A stretch of DNA of 64,000 bases, from assembly GCA_965644265.1 (NCBI GenBank), contig OZ286465.1, positions 21,824,001 to 21,888,000 on the forward strand. Direction: 5' to 3'. This document shows positions 16,551 to 26,950 of this stretch, piece after piece (position 1 is the first letter of the stretch; every line of letters begins with the position of its first letter). The notes beneath the pieces were generated by a model. That model saw only the letters and a program-made list of their open reading frames with translations, did no database searches and was not told where the DNA came from. The stretch comes from Glycera tridactyla. Its lineage: Eukaryota. Made by a program: the position numbers and the translations under genes.

Positions 16551-17246
16551 CGATTGAGAAGGGGGGGACAGAATCGACAAACTAGAAAATGCTTAATCAA
16601 TTTTTAATTGACAAAATATGCAGCCAGCCACACAGCTCGGCCGAGAAGAAAGATGACTTATCAAATCACTGCTTGGCGTACGCCACAGCAGCTTCAAGAT
16701 ATCTAACCAGATTAGATATTCATTAGCAACAACTTAAAGGGCAAATGCCCGTAACTAGTAAAACAGATTCGTGTAATTACCGCAGATGGGTAGGCCAGTA
16801 GGCCTCAAAGGCAGTCTGAAAAATTACAGTCAGACGCCGCTACATATGGACTTCACGGGAAGGCTAATTACCACCAACCCGGGCAGAGCATCTCTATGCG
16901 GATCTATGGAAATGAAAGATATGAGCTGTATAATCAACCTATTACATGAAGTTCAAAAGTCAGTCTACTCCGTCGAGCGCATTACAGCCCGACTGTCTTC
17001 CGTTGGCTCATTGGTTGACAATGGACTTCACAGGTAGGCTATTTACTGCCTGCCTGGTTAAGCAACATGTGTTTGAGCCCTTGAGGCGTGAGTAATGTAC
17101 TGCAGAATTCAAGTTACTGAGTGAAAATCAGCCCTATTTATCACAGTATTATGAGATATCTTTCTATTTAACAAGGCTGACATTCCAAAGGATATTTGAG
17201 AGCTGAAAAAGCCCTCCCTCCTGGTCTTCCTGTATGACCGCCAAGG
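16551..17246 (-). repeat. Split direct repeat B2, ~696 bp, copy of B1 17633-18329
   Basis: By eye differs only by a G-run (7 vs 8) and A16776 vs G17859. Confidence 0.95.
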
Positions 17247-17324
17247 GCGACATTTAGTCGGGAAAAACCCCTAAAAACAGGATGATTACAAAGGAGGTGT
17301 CTATATGGGGATGGAGGTGGGTAA

Positions 17325-17635
17325 ATCCAAAAATTCCGTCCACCCGAAATTGCAACCTGCCGCCCAGCTGGTTGAATTCAAAATGGCGCTGATTCAGGCG
17401 TTGACGCTGTGACGTGGCATCGCCAAGTACGTGACGTCACAAACATCACCATGGTGACTATTGTTGCTCCCTGGAAGGGGAGCTAGACAATCATGTGGCT
17501 AACTGTAAAATTAACATGCTATCCAGCACAACACGTACATAAAACCTTAATCCAATCAGTCAATAGCAGAATTATTTGAGCATTCCATCCCCCCCACTCA
17601 ACCGCAAATGTCAGCCCATGGGTGGCATTTTCCGA
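17325..17635 (-). repeat. Split direct repeat A2, 311 bp, copy of A1 23200-23510
   Basis: By eye two substitutions (17411/23286, 17475/23350). Contains CRE-like GTGACGTCAC and YY1-like CAAAATGGCG motifs. Confidence 0.95.
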
Positions 17636-18428
17636 TTGAGAAGGGGGGGGACAGAATCGACAAACTAGAAAATGCTTAATCAATTTTTAATTGACAAAAT
17701 ATGCAGCCAGCCACACAGCTCGGCCGAGAAGAAAGATGACTTATCAAATCACTGCTTGGCGTACGCCACAGCAGCTTCAAGATATCTAACCAGATTAGAT
17801 ATTCATTAGCAACAACTTAAAGGGCAAATGCCCGTAACTAGTAAAACAGATTCGTGTAGTTACCGCAGATGGGTAGGCCAGTAGGCCTCAAAGGCAGTCT
17901 GAAAAATTACAGTCAGACGCCGCTACATATGGACTTCACGGGAAGGCTAATTACCACCAACCCGGGCAGAGCATCTCTATGCGGATCTATGGAAATGAAA
18001 GATATGAGCTGTATAATCAACCTATTACATGAAGTTCAAAAGTCAGTCTACTCCGTCGAGCGCATTACAGCCCGACTGTCTTCCGTTGGCTCATTGGTTG
18101 ACAATGGACTTCACAGGTAGGCTATTTACTGCCTGCCTGGTTAAGCAACATGTGTTTGAGCCCTTGAGGCGTGAGTAATGTACTGCAGAATTCAAGTTAC
18201 TGAGTGAAAATCAGCCCTATTTATCACAGTATTATGAGATATCTTTCTATTTAACAAGGCTGACATTCCAAAGGATATTTGAGAGCTGAAAAAGCCCTCC
18301 CTCCTGGTCTTCCTGTATGACCGCCAAGGCATATGTTGAAGGCAAGCCTTCAACACGGGCATCAGAGAAAACCACCACACCCGCCTGCTGGCCTGACCTC
18401 GAATAGCGACAGGCGAGACAGGCTCTCT

Positions 18429-19340
18429 CTATAAAGATAACAAGTCCGGGCGTATATAGCGCAGGAAACAAAAGGATTTCCAGCGTCCAAGAAGTTTAAT
18501 TTGTACCACTGACGCCCCGGACGACGCCAGGTCGGAGCACGCTCCAATTCGGAAGCTGTGCGGCGTGTATTTCATTGGGTCAAGACCCAGAAGAGTGACG
18601 GCCTTCTTAAGACAACTCCTGAACCATGTCTGGCCATACGGGGTGCCCGTGTGGTCGCACATAAGGTGCCCAGGGGCTGAGCCTCTGACATGCAAAAATA
18701 AAGCTAAGCGAGTAACTGGGCAGGTTGAGTTATTGGTAGCAACCAGCCTGATCTTAAGAGGCTCAAAAGCTGTCGTTTTGGACGAGGCCAGAGTTAAAAT
18801 GGCTGCTGAGATACCGTTGACTGAAACTTCGTATTCGATATTATTCAAAGTTAAGGCGTGATCGGAAAGTGGAGATCGGAATAGTTCGCTGATCCGCAAT
18901 GCCGCAGCATATAGCAAACAAACTGCCGCTTTAAAAGCTAATTGATCGTAAGTGGCGGACGCCACGGCGCCTGTCACTTGTACTATGTCAGCCAGCAAGC
19001 CCAGAGTAATGGGCCTGCGGGCGTCTCTTTTAGGCGCTGATTTCCTGAAAGAGAGCAACAGTTTTCGAATACGGAATGAGCTAGTAGGCTCGATTTTGTC
19101 TCTGGCTTTGTGTGCAAAAGCAATGGCGGCGCAAATATTGCGAATAGTACTATACGATAAGTCGGCAAAATGAGCAAGAATGATGAAAAGTTCAACAAGT
19201 TTACCACTCACTGGAAAAATGGGGGGCAAACCAGTGATCTCTATAACAAAATTGACGAACTGATTCCAGTATCTTGAATAGCTTCGAAGGGTGGATGATG
19301 CCACGCTACGAGACAAACAAAACCCTACAATCCTGTCCAA
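18429..19340 (-). CDS. Tyrosine recombinase of the Ngaro element (frame open from ~19440; no ATG near its start)
   Basis: Catalytic set AALRISEL (R), SSKT (K), HSFRIG (HxxR), LGRW (W), RYIR (Y); overlaps the pol stop. Confidence 0.93.
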   Translation of the reverse strand: MDRIVGFCLSRSVASSTLRSYSRYWNQFVNFVIEITGLPPIFPVSGKLVELFIILAHFADLSYSTIRNICAAIAFAHKARDKIEPTSSFRIRKLLLSFRKSAPKRDARRPITLGLLADIVQVTGAVASATYDQLAFKAAVCLLYAAALRISELFRSPLSDHALTLNNIEYEVSVNGISAAILTLASSKTTAFEPLKIRLVATNNSTCPVTRLALFLHVRGSAPGHLMCDHTGTPYGQTWFRSCLKKAVTLLGLDPMKYTPHSFRIGACSDLASSGASVVQIKLLGRWKSFCFLRYIRPDLLSL

Positions 19341-20965
19341 TTGCTCGGCATTAATTGAGTAGGAATTTGCTCGGGGCTTGGACGCAATCCCAGACGGCGA
19401 AGGCCCATCTCTCGGACCTGAAACCGAGAGATCGCATCAGCGATATTATTCTCCAGCCCCGGGATATGTTCGCTGTCAAAAACAATATTCATACACAAAG
19501 CGACCAACACAAGCTGCCTAACAAGTCGCATGACATGCTTGTCCTTGGACGACTGCTTATTGAGGATGGTTACTAGGGCGAGGTTATCTGTGTGGAAACG
19601 CACCCGGCAATTAGCCAACCGTTCTGCAAATATATGCACTGCCACCACAATGGGGAAAAGCTCTAGAAAAGTTTTGTGGAAATCCCTCCAGTGGGGAGGG
19701 AAAGGCACCTCGAACCATTGATCGCCCAAAAAACCTCCGCAGCCCTTAAAACACGCGTCTGTGTAAAGGTCCAATTCGGGACTTGACCAGATGCGGGAGG
19801 ACAAGAAGAAGGTCTTCCCATTATACTTTTGGAGAAAGAGCAACCAGATACGAAGGTCTTGCTTCACGTCTGATGACAACGCAATTTTGGAAAACGGTGT
19901 CCGTTTGCCACAAGTACAGTTAATTAATCTTCGGAGGAAAGGCCGTCCTGGTAGGACCACGTTGGCCGCCCATTGGAGACAACCCAAGATTTGCTGCAGG
20001 TCTGCCAAAGTGACGATGTCCGTACTCAGGAAAACCATAATGCGTTTGATATATTCCTCCACCTTATAATTTGGGAGAGTGGCATAGAAATCGGAAGTAT
20101 TCAATTCAATACCCAAGAAAACCAGAGATTTCGCTGGACCAACAGTTTTGTCCGGCGCCAGGGGCACCCCTAGGCGCTTACAAAGAGCACAAAAAATATG
20201 CAAGGATGTTGAACAAGAGGACTCCGTAGGGTCAAGGAGGAGGAAGTCATCTATGTAATGGATAATGTTTGTGATCCCAAACTTATTCTTTGCTATCCAT
20301 TCAATGGCTGTAGCAAATGTCTCAAATATTTTACAACTAGACCTGCCTCCAAAAACGAGGCATTTGTCATGATAAAACTTATCACCCACGCGAAAACCCA
20401 GCAAATGATACTCATTGGGGTCGATGGGCATGAGTCTGAACGCGGACACCACATCTGTTTTACATAGATAAGTTCCTCTTCCCATTGACATAATGCACTT
20501 GATCGCATCCCCCACGGATGAATATTTTACACACGCTTCGCTGTCTGGGATGAGGCCGTTGATTGATAAACAAGAATAAGGGTATGAGAGGTCTTGGATT
20601 AATCTATATTTCCCAGGTTCTTTTTTGGGCCTGATAGTGAGAGGTGCAATGTGCATATCATCAAACGGCATATCACTGAAGGGCCCGGCCATACGGCCCA
20701 GGCCAAGCTCTTTATTTACTAAATTTAGGACAATATCGGGATTTCTCTCAGCAGGAAGAGAATTTTTTGTGGCTTGGTAAACCGGCCCGGCCGCTCTACC
20801 CATTGAGAATCCATACGTGAATCCATTTACTAAATACAATGATGTCGCCCGGTCGTACCCATGTAATTGCCTGGCGAGCTCGTCTGGCGAAACAGGAGTT
20901 GGGAGCGCCGACGTGATAGGGAAAGGCCCCTCATTGAAGTAATTAAATCCTAAAACATAGAAAAA
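19325..20965 (-). CDS. Reverse transcriptase + RNase H (pol) of the Ngaro element; the frame opens at 20965, upstream of the track ORF start
   Basis: LPTPV..YLVNGFTYGF; KTDVVSAFR; FGGRSSC; YIDDFL; RNase H LYTDAC, LELFPI, TDN, IADAISR. Confidence 0.95.
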   Translation of the reverse strand, partial: FFYVLGFNYFNEGPFPITSALPTPVSPDELARQLHGYDRATSLYLVNGFTYGFSMGRAAGPVYQATKNSLPAERNPDIVLNLVNKELGLGRMAGPFSDMPFDDMHIAPLTIRPKKEPGKYRLIQDLSYPYSCLSINGLIPDSEACVKYSSVGDAIKCIMSMGRGTYLCKTDVVSAFRLMPIDPNEYHLLGFRVGDKFYHDKCLVFGGRSSCKIFETFATAIEWIAKNKFGITNIIHYIDDFLLLDPTESSCSTSLHIFCALCKRLGVPLAPDKTVGPAKSLVFLGIELNTSDFYATLPNYKVEEYIKRIMVFLSTDIVTLADLQQILGCLQWAANVVLPGRPFLRRLINCTCGKRTPFSKIALSSDVKQDLRIWLLFLQKYNGKTFFLSSRIWSSPELDLYTDACFKGCGGFLGDQWFEVPFPPHWRDFHKTFLELFPIVVAVHIFAERLANCRVRFHTDNLALVTILNKQSSKDKHVMRLVRQLVLVALCMNIVFDSEHIPGLENNIADAISRFQVREMGLRRLGLRPSPEQIPTQLMPSNWTGL

Positions 20966-20975
20966 TCAGAAAAAC

Positions 20976-22316
20976 CTAGTTCTTATTCTCTTTCTTGGCC
21001 TGGTCATGCTGTTTAGGGGCCGGCTCTTTGTTAGTTGTTTTCTTAGCATCACTGGATTTCGCACATTTGAACACAGGATGGGACGCCCCGCACCCGGGGG
21101 TGGGGCAAGAGTGTTTGTATCCGCAATCCTTGCCTTTGTTGCATGACTGGCCCTGATTGTGATAGGCGTAGCAGTATGCTCGCGGGACCTTATGGATAGT
21201 GATGTTACTGGAATCAAACCCCCCAGCCGAAGAAGGAGGTCTCGAAAAAGACGTTGTCTTTTTGGCGATGGCACGCGTATAGAGATCAGTCCTAATGGCA
21301 TCCCATGAGGGCGGCTGGGATGTGAATGAACGTTCTCTCCTATATACTTCGTCATACGACTTCCAATCTAAGCGATCGGTTGCCATTTGTTTGACGAAAC
21401 GATAATACGTAAGAAGCTCAGCCGCCAGCGAACTGTTGCCAGGCTTCCTAAGTAATACTGCCATGAAAATCTCAAAACATTGCGACCACTGATTAATATC
21501 TTTGATAGTGCGGGCCCCCTTCTGGACAAAAGATAACGCTCCTGTCGAATCAGACGGGGTAAACGCCAACTCAAATTTGGGTTCATATTCTGTAGGTAGA
21601 AGGGAAGCCAAGTTCAAGTAGGTACCTTGCCAAATTATACTGATAAGTTTCTTGTCCACAGCCTCACCACATTTTAAACCGGAACAAGTCAACGGGCCCG
21701 GGGAATGTAACTCCAGGATGGGAATATTCAAGATAGGGTCATCTTGAACATCGGCTTCAGCAATTTCAGAAAGCGAGTCACCCATACCTTTGTCCAAACC
21801 AGGCACCAGTCCCATGTCTGTAACTTCTGCAGCGTTTACGACTGTAATGGGAGCATCGTTCACCGTCGATTGGGTATCGGTAGAGCGCACACGCCCCTCT
21901 ACACTACGCCCCTGCATGTGGGAATCAAAAGAGTTCTTCAACTCAGAAACAGAAGATGCCCCTGAATTCACAGTAGTCGCTGCATCGTTGATGATTGCCA
22001 GTAGGGATGCATATTCCGCAGATGAAATGCTGGGGTTGGCTGAGGACTCACGAGGGCCAGAAGAGGAGCCGGCCACATTAAGTATGCCATTGGCGTGGTC
22101 CAATCTCACAGCCAATGGCACCGAAGACGACATATCATTGGGTGAAACAGCCACTCCACTGTCTGAAGTCACATCGGAAGCCGAGGCAACGTTGTCTGTT
22201 CGAGGATTCAGCACATCAGCCATAGGCGAGGAAAGGAGCCTATCTGTCAACTGTACTGCTCTCTTCGGGGTAGAAGGCGGGGCCAACTTCGACTTCGACG
22301 GACACTTGCGAGTCAT
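20976..22316 (-). CDS. Gag-like ORF1 of the Ngaro element (first ATG 22316; track start 22328 is TTG)
   Basis: C-terminal Cys/His knuckle CYAYHNQGQSCNKGKDCGYKHSCPTPGCGASHPVFKC and W..YDE.YR motif, typical of DIRS/Ngaro ORF1. Confidence 0.88.
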   Translation of the reverse strand: MTRKCPSKSKLAPPSTPKRAVQLTDRLLSSPMADVLNPRTDNVASASDVTSDSGVAVSPNDMSSSVPLAVRLDHANGILNVAGSSSGPRESSANPSISSAEYASLLAIINDAATTVNSGASSVSELKNSFDSHMQGRSVEGRVRSTDTQSTVNDAPITVVNAAEVTDMGLVPGLDKGMGDSLSEIAEADVQDDPILNIPILELHSPGPLTCSGLKCGEAVDKKLISIIWQGTYLNLASLLPTEYEPKFELAFTPSDSTGALSFVQKGARTIKDINQWSQCFEIFMAVLLRKPGNSSLAAELLTYYRFVKQMATDRLDWKSYDEVYRRERSFTSQPPSWDAIRTDLYTRAIAKKTTSFSRPPSSAGGFDSSNITIHKVPRAYCYAYHNQGQSCNKGKDCGYKHSCPTPGCGASHPVFKCAKSSDAKKTTNKEPAPKQHDQAKKENKN

Positions 22317-22719
22317 GGCACCTGCCAAAAAGATGCGAGAATATCATCGATGGTCGGGAGTGTGAGAGGGGGGGGGGGGGGGGGGAGGGGAAATGGGGGG
22401 GGGGGCGTGCATCAGCACAAGACACACGTCTCTGTGGAAATGCAAGGTGACCGGCGAAAAACAAGGATACAACAGCACGAGACGCACATCTACGTGGATC
22501 CCGCCTAAACTCGCAATATGCTTAGACCATGATTAAGAGGCGGGGACTGGGGACAGTTGGGGAGAAACAACGAGTGATAGTGTGAATAACATACCTTCGC
22601 TGTGTGTCAAGAAAAGAATTACGAAAGGGGGAAGTTGAGAACACCACGTTCCGTTGTTTGCCAACAATTCTATTTCTGTCACGTTGAGGGCGTGACACCT
22701 TGACAACTACAGCCGACAG

Positions 22720-22900
22720 GCCAATCAACGAACGAGTGTGAGTCACGTGGACAAAATACGGCCGTTCATTGGAAGCGGCACTCCAGGCCGACCCCGCACG
22801 AGGTCAGCCAGTGACGTCACACGAAGACGCTAATCTGATTGGAAGCGGCACTCCGATGTTACCGCAAAAGGCGGGAAAGAGTGCGGGCGAATCCTCGGCT
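22720..22900. promoter_or_regulatory. Motif cluster in the Ngaro 5' region (CCAAT/ATTGG several times, GTGACGTCAC, CACGTG)
   Basis: Motifs seen directly; function inferred. Confidence 0.35.
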
Positions 22901-23510
22901 CATTGGAGGGAGGGTTCAAAGAACACATTATAAGAAATAACAAATATTAGCGATACCATTGGGGCATCATTGAATTCTTCGAAACAGACAAATTATGTTC
23001 CTTCGAACCAACAGCATTAGCTGAACTGCCTCTTAATCGGCTAATAAATCTTGAACGGCCGGGGAGGCGTATCTAACAAAACCAAAAATACGTCTCAACA
23101 AAATTGACAAGGCTGGGCGGCACCTTAATGTTCTATTTCGTTGCGGAGACTGAACAGGGAACGGCGCATCTGGTCAGCAAAACGCTGAAAAGCCCAATGA
23201 TCCAAAAATTCCGTCCACCCGAAATTGCAACCTGCCGCCCAGCTGGTTGAATTCAAAATGGCGCTGATTCAGGCGTTGACGCTGTCACGTGGCATCGCCA
23301 AGTACGTGACGTCACAAACATCACCATGGTGACTATTGTTGCTCCCTGGGAGGGGAGCTAGACAATCATGTGGCTAACTGTAAAATTAACATGCTATCCA
23401 GCACAACACGTACATAAAACCTTAATCCAATCAGTCAATAGCAGAATTATTTGAGCATTCCATCCCCCCCACTCAACCGCAAATGTCAGCCCATGGGTGG
23501 CATTTTCCGA

Positions 23511-25560
23511 CTCTGTTTGTGAAGAAGTGCTTCCTTATATTTGTGCGGCTGTACTGATGGCTCAACTTCAGGTCATTTCCCCTGGTGGTTATTGTTGTGC
23601 TAGGCGAATGAAGATTCAGAATCTGCGGCAGGGAGTGGTCATACTTGTGGAGGAGTTTCCATGTCTCGATGATATCTCCTCGTAGTCTACGGAACCTCAG
23701 TGATGGTAGGGCCAGTTTCTGTAGCCGTTCCTCGTATGATAGATTCTTGAAGCCTGGTAGCTGTTTGGTGGCTCTACGCTGGACATTTTCAATCAGGGTG
23801 ATGTCTTTCAGTAGATGAGGGTTCCATATGGGGGCAGCATACTCGAGGTGGGGCCTCACGAAGGCTTTGAACAATAGTAGGAAGGTTTGTTGGTCAAGGT
23901 GAATGAATGTTCTCCTGATCATGCCTGCCATCCTGTTGGCTTTGTTTACCCGGGTGTTGATATCAAGTCGGAACTTTAGATCAGAGTCGATTGTTACTCC
24001 TACATCTTTCTCCGATGTTACGACTTCGAGATTGGTGTCCCCGCTGTCCAAGGTGTAGATCGGTTCAATGTCTGTAGTACCTATGCGTAGTATTTTGCAC
24101 TTGGTGAGGTTGAAACGGAGTAGCCAGATTTGTGTCCAGTCAGAGAGCGAGTGTATGTCATCTTGGAAGCTCTGGTGGTCGTCTTCATTACCTATCGTAG
24201 CCCAGGTTTTGGTGTCGTCGGCAAAGAGATACGTGTCTGACTTTGTGCAGTTGGGAAGGTCATTTATGATGATGACGAAGAGTAGGGGTCCGAGTACGGA
24301 GCCTTGCGGGACCCCGCTGGTGACTGGTCTCCATGTTGAATGAGTACCATTTATTACCATGCGTTGCTGGCGCCCAGAGAGGAAGTTTTGGATCCAACCT
24401 AAGACATCATCTTCAGAGTAGGGGTCCGAGTACGGAGCCTTGCGGGACCCCGCTGGTGACTGGTCTCCATGTTGAATGAGTACCATTTATTACCATGCGT
24501 TGCTGGCGCCCAGAGAGGAAGTTTTGGATCCAACCTAAGACATCATCTTCAATCCCGTAGCTTCTTGCCTTCAGCATTAGTCTTCTATGGGGTACTTTGT
24601 CGAACGCCTTCATGAAGTCCATATAGGCCACATTGATGCAGTCTCCATTGTCAAGGATAGCGGTCCATTTCTCTAGGGCATGTAGTAGTTGTAGAACAGT
24701 AGAGCGTCCTTGGATGAAGCCAAATTGGTATGGTGAGAATAGCGGTTTCATGTGGTCGTTCAGATGATCTCGTACGATAGATTCCATGATCTTGCACAGG
24801 ATACATGTGAGGCTTATGGGGCGGTAGTTCCCTGGATCATGTTTGTTGCCTTTTTTGAAGATAGCCGTGACGTTTGCATTCTTCCATATTTTTGGTAGGG
24901 TTTGCTGTTTCATACTCCTGTTGAACAGGGATGACAGTGGTTCTGCCAGTTCATTTCTGAGCTCATGGAGAATTGCTGGTGAAATGAAGTCAGGCCCTGG
25001 GCCCTTGGTAGGATCCAGGTTCTTCAGTTTCTTCAAAACTCCTTCCTTGGTAATTGATAACTGGTGCAGTGTGTTGTCGACTCTTGGGTCTATCTCGACA
25101 GTGGGGCAGTCAGGAGGTTCCTCTGTGAAGACCCCTGAGAAAAAGTCAGCAAGGGCTTCTGTCTTATCGGCATCTGTAGCGGCTATCTTTGTCTTCCCGT
25201 GCTGATCAGTGGAGTGCAGTTCGGAGATTCTTTCCCTTGTTTTGGTCTTGGCACTGACATAGGACCAAAATCGTTTGGGATTTGCCTTTGCTGCCTTCGC
25301 TATGTCCTTCTCGGTTGCTTTCTGGGCTTTGCGAGTCAGTTTCCTAATTTTATTCCTGATTCTCACGTAATCAAGGTACTTCTGGCCGCATCTTGTTTCC
25401 AGGAATCGTTGCCATGCTCGGTGCTTCTTTTTTATTGTCCGGGTTGTAGGTGTGTCTATGTTAGGAGCTCTCCTTTTCTGGGGGCCTGAGATGACTCTGG
25501 AGGGAATGTGCTTCTTTTGGAGACCTGCATTATCTTTTGGAGACCTGCATTATCAGTGAT
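23511..25560 (-). mobile_element. CR1/L2-group LINE, 5'-truncated ORF2 (RT), frameshifted by a 136-bp tandem duplication
   Basis: PGNYRPISLT, YMDFMKAFDKVPH, SGVPQGSVLGPLLF, LFADDTK, FVRPHLEYA, RLRGDIIE..K, RKHFFTNRV; continues at 16550. Confidence 0.93.
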
Positions 25561-25719: not shown

Positions 25720-26950
25720 AATGAGTGTGCAGTAGGTAGTGCTGAGCTGTGAGACAGCAGGGGCAAGTGTGCAGTGGGGGGGGGGGGGGGGGTCCTCAGC
25801 TGTGAAACAGCAGGGGTAAAGGTGCAATAGGTAGGGGTTGAGCTGTGAGACAGCAGGGTAAGTGTGTAGTGCTGTGCTGTGAGACAGGAGGGGTTAGTGT
25901 GCAGTATGTAGGGGTTGAGCAGGAGATAGCAGGGGTAAGTGTGCAGTAGGTAGTTGTTGAGCTATGGGACAGCAGGGGTAAGTGTGTAGTAGGTAGGGCT
26001 GGGCTGTAAAGCAGCGGGGGTAAGTGTGCAGTAGGTGTGGTGCTGGTCTATGGGACAGCGGGGGTAAGTGTGTAGTAGGTAGGGCTGGGCTGTAAAGCAG
26101 CGGGGTTAAGTGTGCAGTAGGTAGGGCTGAGCTGTAAAGCAGTGGAGGTAGGTGTGCAGTAGGTAGTGGTTGAGCTATGGGACAGCAGGGGTAAGTGTGC
26201 AGTAGGTAAGGCTGGGCTGTAAAGCAGCGGGGGTAAGTGTGCAGTAGGTAGTGGTTGAGCTGTAAAGCAGCGGGGGTAAGTGTGCAGTAGGTAGGGCTGA
26301 GCTGTAAAGCAGTGAGGGTAAGTGTGCAGTAGGTGTGGTGCTGGGTTATGGGACAGCAGGGGTAAGTGTGATGTTGGCAGGGTGAACTTTGAGACAGCAG
26401 GGGTAAGTGTGCAGTAGGTAGGGGTTGATCTATGAGACAGCAAGAGTGAGTGTGCAGTAGTTGGTGTGAATTGTGAGACAACAGGTGTAAGTGTGCAATA
26501 GGTAGGGCTGAGCTGAGACAGCAGGGGTAGTTGTGCAGTAGGTAGGGGTTGGGCTGAGACAGCAGGGGTGAGTGTGGAGTAGGTAGGGGTTGAGCTATGA
26601 GACAGCAAGGGTGAGTGTGCAGTAGTTGGGGTGAATTGCCAGACAGCAGAGAATTAAAGGGCTGAGCTGTGGGACAGCAGGGGTAAGGGTGCAATACATG
26701 TAGTAAGGGTTGAGTTATCATACAGCAGCGTTATGTGTGAAGTAGGTGAGGTGCTGAGCTGCGAGACAGCAGGGGTAAATGTGCAGGGGGGGGGGGGGGT
26801 GTTCAGTTGTGAGACTGCATGGGCGATTGAGTGCACTAGGTTGGTGTGTTTGTGTGTGTGTGTGAGGGGGGTGGGGGGTGGGGGGTTGCTGGGCTGTGAG
26901 ACAACAGGGGCGAGTGTGCAGTGGGTTTGGGTGCTGAGCTGTGAGGATGA
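25720..26950. repeat. ~43-bp minisatellite (GAGCTGTAAAGCAGCGGGGGTAAGTGTGCAGTAGGTAGTGGTT-like)
   Basis: About 25-28 degenerate units; source of the spurious low-complexity ORFs. Confidence 0.9.

Follow-up and report, generated by a model that had tools for sequence, protein, structure and literature searches.

The retrotransposon and its open reading frames

The window, that is, the whole 64,000-nucleotide (nt) stretch of the Glycera tridactyla genome analysed here (GenBank assembly GCA_965644265.1, contig OZ286465.1, positions 21,824,001 to 21,888,000), carries on its minus strand, between positions 23510 and 16551, an element that by its sequence organization is a young Ngaro-type retrotransposon. 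Comparison with its relatives suggests that one exon at the start of its gag-like frame is very probably spliced alternatively to the pol and recombinase exons, giving three proteins from one start codon. In the order of the element, the split direct repeat A1 (23200..23510, starting with TCG) is followed by a 5' region, the gag-like, pol and recombinase frames, repeat B1 (17636..18329), repeat A2 immediately behind it (17321..17635), 74 unique bases and repeat B2 (16551..17246, ending in TCG). Because A1 and A2 are 99.4% identical over 311 nt and B1 and B2 are 99.7% identical, the insertion is young. The TCG triplet recurs at the B1/A2 junction, and the insertion lies in the end of a LINE (long interspersed nuclear element)-type reverse transcriptase (RT) frame, which is interrupted by the element and picks up again across the insertion site with no target duplication.

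The gag-like open reading frame (ORF; 20976..22316, 446 amino acids, aa) matched no Pfam family; its conserved core starts at about residue 201 and a Cys/His finger spans residues 381-415, approximately. The pol exon (19325..20949) encodes an RT (Pfam RVT_1, E 3e-11) and an RNase H (RT_RNaseH, E 0.01, which is below the Pfam cut-off), and the tyrosine recombinase exon (18429..19417; Phage_integrase, E 1e-07) overlaps the final 93 nt of pol, so that RT, RNase H and recombinase follow each other on one strand. No methyltransferase, protease, integrase or env domain was matched by Pfam in the element, and pol stops 93 nt (30 codons) after the RNase H motif.

These features agree with the Ngaro superfamily of the order DIRS, described in the accessible parts of two papers as having split repeats in the order A1-ORFs-B1 A2 B2, a gag-like ORF, RT/RNase H and a recombinase, without a methyltransferase (PMC8547959, PMC4157794): the repeat order, the three ORF types and the lack of a methyltransferase all match. 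Likewise, DIRS1-like elements are described, in the part of the source available, as integrating without target duplication via a 3-base junction (PMC3266345), comparable to the TCG junctions here. PAT-like DIRS elements share the split direct repeats and the recombinase but carry a methyltransferase behind RNase H (PMC4157794, seen in part), and membership in that group is ruled out by the lack of this domain in the present pol. The assignment to Ngaro rests on repeats, domain order and integration pattern, the RT tree comprising only copies from this genome.

Conserved splice sites in the clade of the element

The genome contains at least 151 RT matches at 46-100% identity to the element. 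We compared 120 RT-match copies with their flanks, plus 40 further loci, and built an unrooted tree (a quick method, no outgroup) from 96 copies with near-complete pol, in which the group of the window copy (clade A, 52 rows) forms one side of a branch with a Shimodaira-Hasegawa-like approximate likelihood ratio (SH-aLRT) support of 100. This group falls into 26 families at 80% identity, with a between-family median of 60% nucleotide identity. In total, 71 of 121 sequences were counted as clade A, 19 of these, which lack an intact pol, having been placed by similarity. The A1...B1 A2 B2 order is found in 38 of the 71 copies within the flanks fetched. Clade A consists of many low-copy families, and given that the terminal repeats are near-identical in most of those checked, many of them appear to have been recently active.

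The earlier note on this DNA proposed a phase-1 donor within gag, AAG/GTATGG (21782..21790, cut after 21788; the slash marks the exon boundary), and suggested that the conservation of acceptors and phase be checked across other copies. This donor stands out in a scan of every codon column and phase: GT followed by a purine is present in 46 of 48 intact gags, and the codon is GGT in 46 of the 48, as opposed to just 4-16 of 39-48 copies at ten other conserved glycine columns. At the family level, G/GT is invariant (19/19) and the +3 base is A in 18 of 19; the preceding codon encodes eight different amino acids, yet its final A (-2) is kept in 18 of 19. On a simple consensus count (not a trained splice model), in 17 of 19 families this site is among the top three of the 66-85 GT sites in gag, and it is located in a poorly conserved, probably disordered linker. 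A second donor put forward in the same note, GTG/GTGAGG (21662..21670, cut after 21668), is likewise in frame with both acceptors, and we reject it: its glycine codon belongs to the ten comparison columns just mentioned and is GGT in only 4 of 47 gags.

The pol acceptor lies in the gag-pol spacer (20949..20975), where a branch-like CTGAT and a pyrimidine tract precede TAG/G in phase 1. With one copy taken per family, AG and the pyrimidine (Y) at -3 are present in 26 of 26 families, T occurs at -5 in 22 and at -6 in 23, and G at +1 in 20. The first conserved pol codon follows the acceptor at a distance of 2 or 5 nt, both of them phase-1 positions, for which the chance background at two fixed positions is about 0.03. 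Among the 70 clade A copies counted (one was unaligned), 64 have a YAG as their nearest AG, and the other six have one 2-3 nt farther up, at the -5 position. The branch-like motif was counted, without a control, in 16 of 26 families. The distance from the gag stop to this acceptor ranges from 25 to 206 nt and falls into the three frames 37, 23 and 8 times (68 copies); since spacer length and frame vary freely, there is no fixed frameshift or read-through from gag to pol. As claimed before, the pol frame of the window copy has no in-frame ATG ahead of its TPV..GF..GF start, the first one being at 20803, after TPV and both GF motifs, and in 64 of 70 copies the first in-frame ATG is at codon 44-98, behind conserved motifs.

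The recombinase acceptor (19417..19441, phase 1) is embedded in the RNase H motif ADAISRFQ, as TTT CAG/G. Both the Phe codon TTT and the Gln codon CAG are invariant in 26 of 26 families, a level at which none of 85 other two-fold codon columns upstream is found even with a 95% threshold, six other Gln columns being split about evenly; by copy, CAG is present in all 65 sequences with the motif (six lack that region). Fixation of synonymous bases implies that TTT CAG is not due to protein constraint. None of the 26 families encodes the Arg before the acceptor by AGA or AGG, codons that 4-14 of 21-26 families use in 14 other Arg columns; this is the pattern expected if AGs upstream of an acceptor are avoided. 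All 26 families have a purine directly after the acceptor, and in 24 of them the recombinase frame is closed no more than 40 nt upstream. In agreement with the earlier observation, the first ATG of this frame in the window copy is residue 252 (18662) and comes only after two residues that we take to be catalytic, the LRISE Arg and the SKT Lys; across families, the first ATG is found at codon 4 to 252 or not at all. Both acceptors had been called strong, an assessment that holds for pol; the pyrimidine tract of the recombinase acceptor is modest, below a 12-of-16 cut-off, and the site rests on its TTTCAG core.

In the 5' region, two CCAAT boxes 70 nt apart flank a TGACGTCA motif (22768..22842); the CCAAT pair is present in 23 of 61 clade A copies, and TGACGTCA occurs within the upstream 1.1 kb in 53 of 63. 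These motif positions suggest that the region may act as an internal promoter. Downstream of it is a predicted 273-nt leader intron in the 5' untranslated region (UTR; 22322..22594, AAG/GTATGT ... GCAG/G). Its sites, proposed from the window alone, are supported by comparison: the test of the leader donor covered the 23 copies whose two CCAAT boxes are spaced by about 70 nt (38 copies have no such pair), and in 20 of them the best donor follows the second box at a distance of 161-190 nt; as for the acceptor, 54 of 61 copies have a YAG no farther than 6 nt from the gag ATG. The claim that all acceptors are phase 1 stands for pol (20949) and recombinase (19417) and fails for gag, where the acceptor, 0-30 nt upstream of the ATG, is found in phases 0, 1 and 2 in 11, 26 and 24 of 61 copies. 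Because it occurs in every phase, this site is best described as a 5' UTR acceptor, predicted from sequence, that is in phase 1 in the window copy by chance.

Thus, the donor and both acceptors are kept across the sibling copies with internal controls passed, and the GT-AG intron features (donor, pyrimidine tract, YAG) are, on this comparative evidence, conserved beyond coding need.

Splice sites and expression plans beyond clade A

The Gln codon of the recombinase acceptor (Gln510) is CAG in 16 and CAA in none of 28 non-A families from this genome. In 53 families from metagenome and genome contigs, CAG and CAA are found 43 and 2 times, compared to 16:21 and 13:16 in control columns, and the preceding Arg is AGR (R, purine) in 2 of the 53. 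Among 22 families without CAG at the site, 17 have an in-frame CAG at -1 to +10 codons (without a formal chance test); the remaining five have an ATG of their own five codons before the TP motif of pol and another at recombinase codon 19, and in the three of these five that are testable, the gag donor is absent. The Ngaro group with its own pol and recombinase ATGs and a lost recombinase acceptor (L139, L141, L143, L146, L149, L151, L154 and L168) is a natural control, representing a third expression plan in the same genome.

Of 38 non-A families, 18 have a phase-1 AG/GTR within the 75-codon stretch that precedes the gag core, 11 of the 20 sites lying 30-39 codons before the core, a pattern that lends moderate support to a gag donor in these families as well. 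Most of them have gag and pol overlapping in a fixed frame, with pol at +1, and no conserved phase-1 pol acceptor was seen by eye in these overlap families (L116-L162, L196-L304), several of which lack an ATG near the pol start (L240, L256, L288); in L290, gag and pol form a single open frame of 980 codons. Hence, three modes of pol expression, spliced, overlapped and with an own start, would coexist in one genome. Because CAG is kept widely and the pol acceptor is confined to clade A, animal Ngaro elements seem to have had the recombinase splice ancestrally, and the pol splice looks like an addition in this clade, an order inferred from an unrooted tree. The first metagenome scan and the viral scan gave no matches. 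Ngaro-type contigs L288-L304 were found within bacterial metagenome-assembled genomes and are probably mis-binned host DNA.

Gag-like starts in public gene models

Among recombinase homologues in public databases, 15 have more than 100 extra N-terminal residues, and nine of these start with a basic motif like that of 47 of 48 clade A gags; among short recombinases such starts number 12 of 130, and among pol homologues 3 of 120. Gag-like starts fused to a recombinase thus appear in public gene models, which are predictions and possibly ab initio, from several animal groups, the named sources of the recombinase models including Branchiostoma, Argopecten, Pecten, Littorina, Nematostella, Procambarus, Bufo, Anolis and Eublepharis. 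The amphioxus proteins P0175 and P0177 share a gag start up to a residue after which P0175 enters the recombinase and P0177 stays in gag; at a toad locus, three isoforms have 223 residues in common and then diverge, one of them into recombinase; and in the isoform pairs P0208/P0327 and P0255/P0334, the two members differ close to the gag-recombinase join, by 6 residues and 1 residue, respectively. P0189 and P0240 come from assembly contigs of 2.7 and 2.1 kb. Two models, P0001 and P0177, look like modelling joins. A search with the gag exon for longer proteins found none.

A model of alternative gag splicing and its alternatives

We propose that one gag exon (21788..22321; gag ATG at 22316, 176 codons plus one base) is, with high probability, shared by three products. 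The mRNA would start at the internal CCAAT promoter and first lose the 273-nt leader intron. If the donor at 21788 were left unused, Gag would be made; joining 21788 to 20949, with 838 nt removed, would yield a 717-aa Gag(1-176)-RT/RNase H, and joining it to 19417, with 2370 nt removed, a 505-aa Gag(1-176)-recombinase. Both joins are stop-free and in frame, as predicted earlier, and we infer from the conservation of the sites that they occur in RNA. The ratio of Gag to enzymes would then be set by splice choice, and the clade-specific pol splice would uncouple pol from the gag end. Because spliced RNAs with a start downstream of A1 would be unusable as templates, the copies, we propose, retain their introns.

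Neither the gag core nor the Cys/His finger would be part of the fusions. What these would contain is a basic N-terminus and a long helix (residues 99-141), the sole confident long helix of the shared part in a structure model of low overall confidence (mean predicted local distance difference test score, pLDDT, 56; predicted template modelling score, pTM, 0.30). A fold search with this model gave no match at E 0.001, a three-copy model of the helix scored 0.07, and the Atlas matches of gag are unnamed eukaryotic clusters. The shared 176 residues might serve as a tag by which both enzymes reach the nucleus or the Gag particle, replacing a full Gag-Pol polyprotein; this is the least secure part of the model and a guess.

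Several observations weigh against the proposed splicing. The joins themselves are predictions from comparison. Among the 40 further loci, chosen because they matched gag or the recombinase, there is no cleanly spliced genomic copy, and an exact junction pattern search returned 0 matches. Upstream of the pol acceptor, 13 of 70 copies (3 of 26 families) have an in-frame ATG, and 4 of 26 families have an ATG no more than 26 codons from the recombinase junction. Outside clade A, a control stretch behind the gag core holds 10 phase-1 donor-like sites, compared to the 18 of 38 families noted above, and such sites prefer phase 1 in general (34/78). As for the public proteins, a gag-start profile beats all shuffles in 4 of 14 recombinase extensions and at no more than 12 bits, a weak signal, and P0001, which joins an RT piece to a recombinase, illustrates that gene models can be ab initio. 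Locus L269, considered as a copy of a Gag-Pol transcript, turned out to carry just a short deletion, and gaps resembling a splice were not found in L209-L304.

The acceptors might instead be joined to the leader donor (22595) or to a trans-spliced leader, the enzymes being Gag-free and initiated at downstream or non-AUG starts. The leader donor, conserved in most testable copies, indeed slightly outscores the gag donor (6.5 versus 6.0 on the simple score), and codon 4 of the recombinase is an ATG in a few families; however, the late pol ATGs and the scattered or missing recombinase ATGs described above speak against such starts, and the conserved gag donor and the common phase 1 would be left unexplained, making this scenario improbable. 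We give slightly less credence still to the view that there is no splicing at all, with reinitiation, internal entry or frameshifting delivering the enzymes and the motifs arising as by-products of protein constraint (SRFQ of RNase H, KGM of Gag). It is true that SR(F/L)Q is conserved at the protein level in many Ngaro RNase H domains and that a non-splicing route exists, given the other clades in which gag and pol overlap in a fixed frame without a conserved acceptor. Nevertheless, protein constraint cannot fix synonymous bases, the non-coding spacer that holds the pol acceptor varies freely in length and frame, and nearly all families have the recombinase frame closed shortly upstream; -1 slippery heptamers are present in only 4 of 26 families, at scattered positions, which rules out a -1 frameshift into the recombinase. 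The lowest probability goes to the case in which the Gag-recombinase splice alone is productive, the pol acceptor giving a regulatory or minor RNA and RT being made otherwise. This would fit the gag-like starts fused to recombinase in public models and their rarity among pol homologues, but none of these 120 homologues is more than 48% identical to the present pol, so that clade A is unsampled, and the pol acceptor is in phase in all 26 clade A families.

Extending alternative gag splicing to the superfamily, we lean modestly towards a scheme in which most animal Ngaro elements make a spliced Gag-recombinase via the acceptor in the last RNase H motif, retained across phyla; clade A adds RT to the same exon, so that a single Gag module would tag all three proteins in place of the Gag-Pol polyprotein, the own-start families dropped the sites, and the internal promoter separates spliced mRNAs from genomic RNA.

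Relation to known expression strategies

Splicing of a gag start onto enzymes is a strategy known from retroviruses, and, like these, the present retroelement would have to splice and also export unspliced RNA. The earlier note likened the scheme to that of the foamy viruses (Spumaretrovirinae), in which, according to the part of the source available, Pol is made from a spliced subgenomic RNA at a level set by a suboptimal splice site and independently of Gag (PMC7828637). The likeness, in Pol production by splicing, is partial: foamy Pol is free of Gag, whereas here 176 Gag residues would be fused to the enzymes. A foamy-type Gag-free Pol is disfavoured by the finding of a conserved in-phase gag donor and no conserved pol ATG.

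Further parallels are the long terminal repeat (LTR) retrotransposons Drosophila copia, barley BARE1, Ogre and CRR, in which splicing adjusts the balance of structural and enzyme proteins (PMC3735527, seen in part). As far as the accessible text goes, copia and BARE1 splice one ORF to give Gag alone and Ogre splices between ORFs, and for none of these spliced elements is a single Gag exon described that can be spliced to either of two enzyme exons. In BARE, translated and replicated RNAs are reported, in the same partial source, to form separate pools from two promoters (PMC3735527), and template RNA may similarly be kept apart from spliced RNA in the present element.

For Ngaro elements, the available parts of the literature describe separate, overlapping or 'frameshifted' ORFs, with no mention of splicing (PMC3783388, PMC9210276), in contrast to the conserved splice sites that link the ORFs here. 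Spliced expression of Ngaro elements is not stated in the accessible portions of PMC7192593, PMC9210276, PMC8547959, PMC4495291, PMC3783388, PMC6681497, PMC3266345, PMC8226300, PMC4157794, PMC5890265, PMC9341512, PMC7828637, PMC3735527 and PMC3537659, and no report of spliced Ngaro or DIRS expression was found in the literature searched, whose coverage did not extend to the founding paper (Goodwin and Poulter 2004) and the 2015 review (Poulter and Butler); the novelty of Gag-exon splicing in Ngaro is accordingly provisional. The expression of the start-less pol and recombinase frames is so far unexplained in the literature found. The predicted recombinase would be longer by about 100-250 residues, which bears on the building of active elements and on recombinase studies, and the exact junctions are testable in existing RNA-seq of toad, amphioxus, scallop, sea anemone and lizard.

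Other features of the locus

The window copy lacks approximately 638 nt directly behind A1 (23200/23199) that are present in the siblings L049, L050, L115 and L163; we considered this gap as a removed intron and rejected the idea, the gap ends not being GT..AG. The host LINE-type RT frame (23473-25549 and 16550 onwards) contains a perfect 136-nt tandem duplication (24279-24550), and positions 25724-26937 are occupied by an array of degenerate repeats of about 42 nt with a strong G skew.

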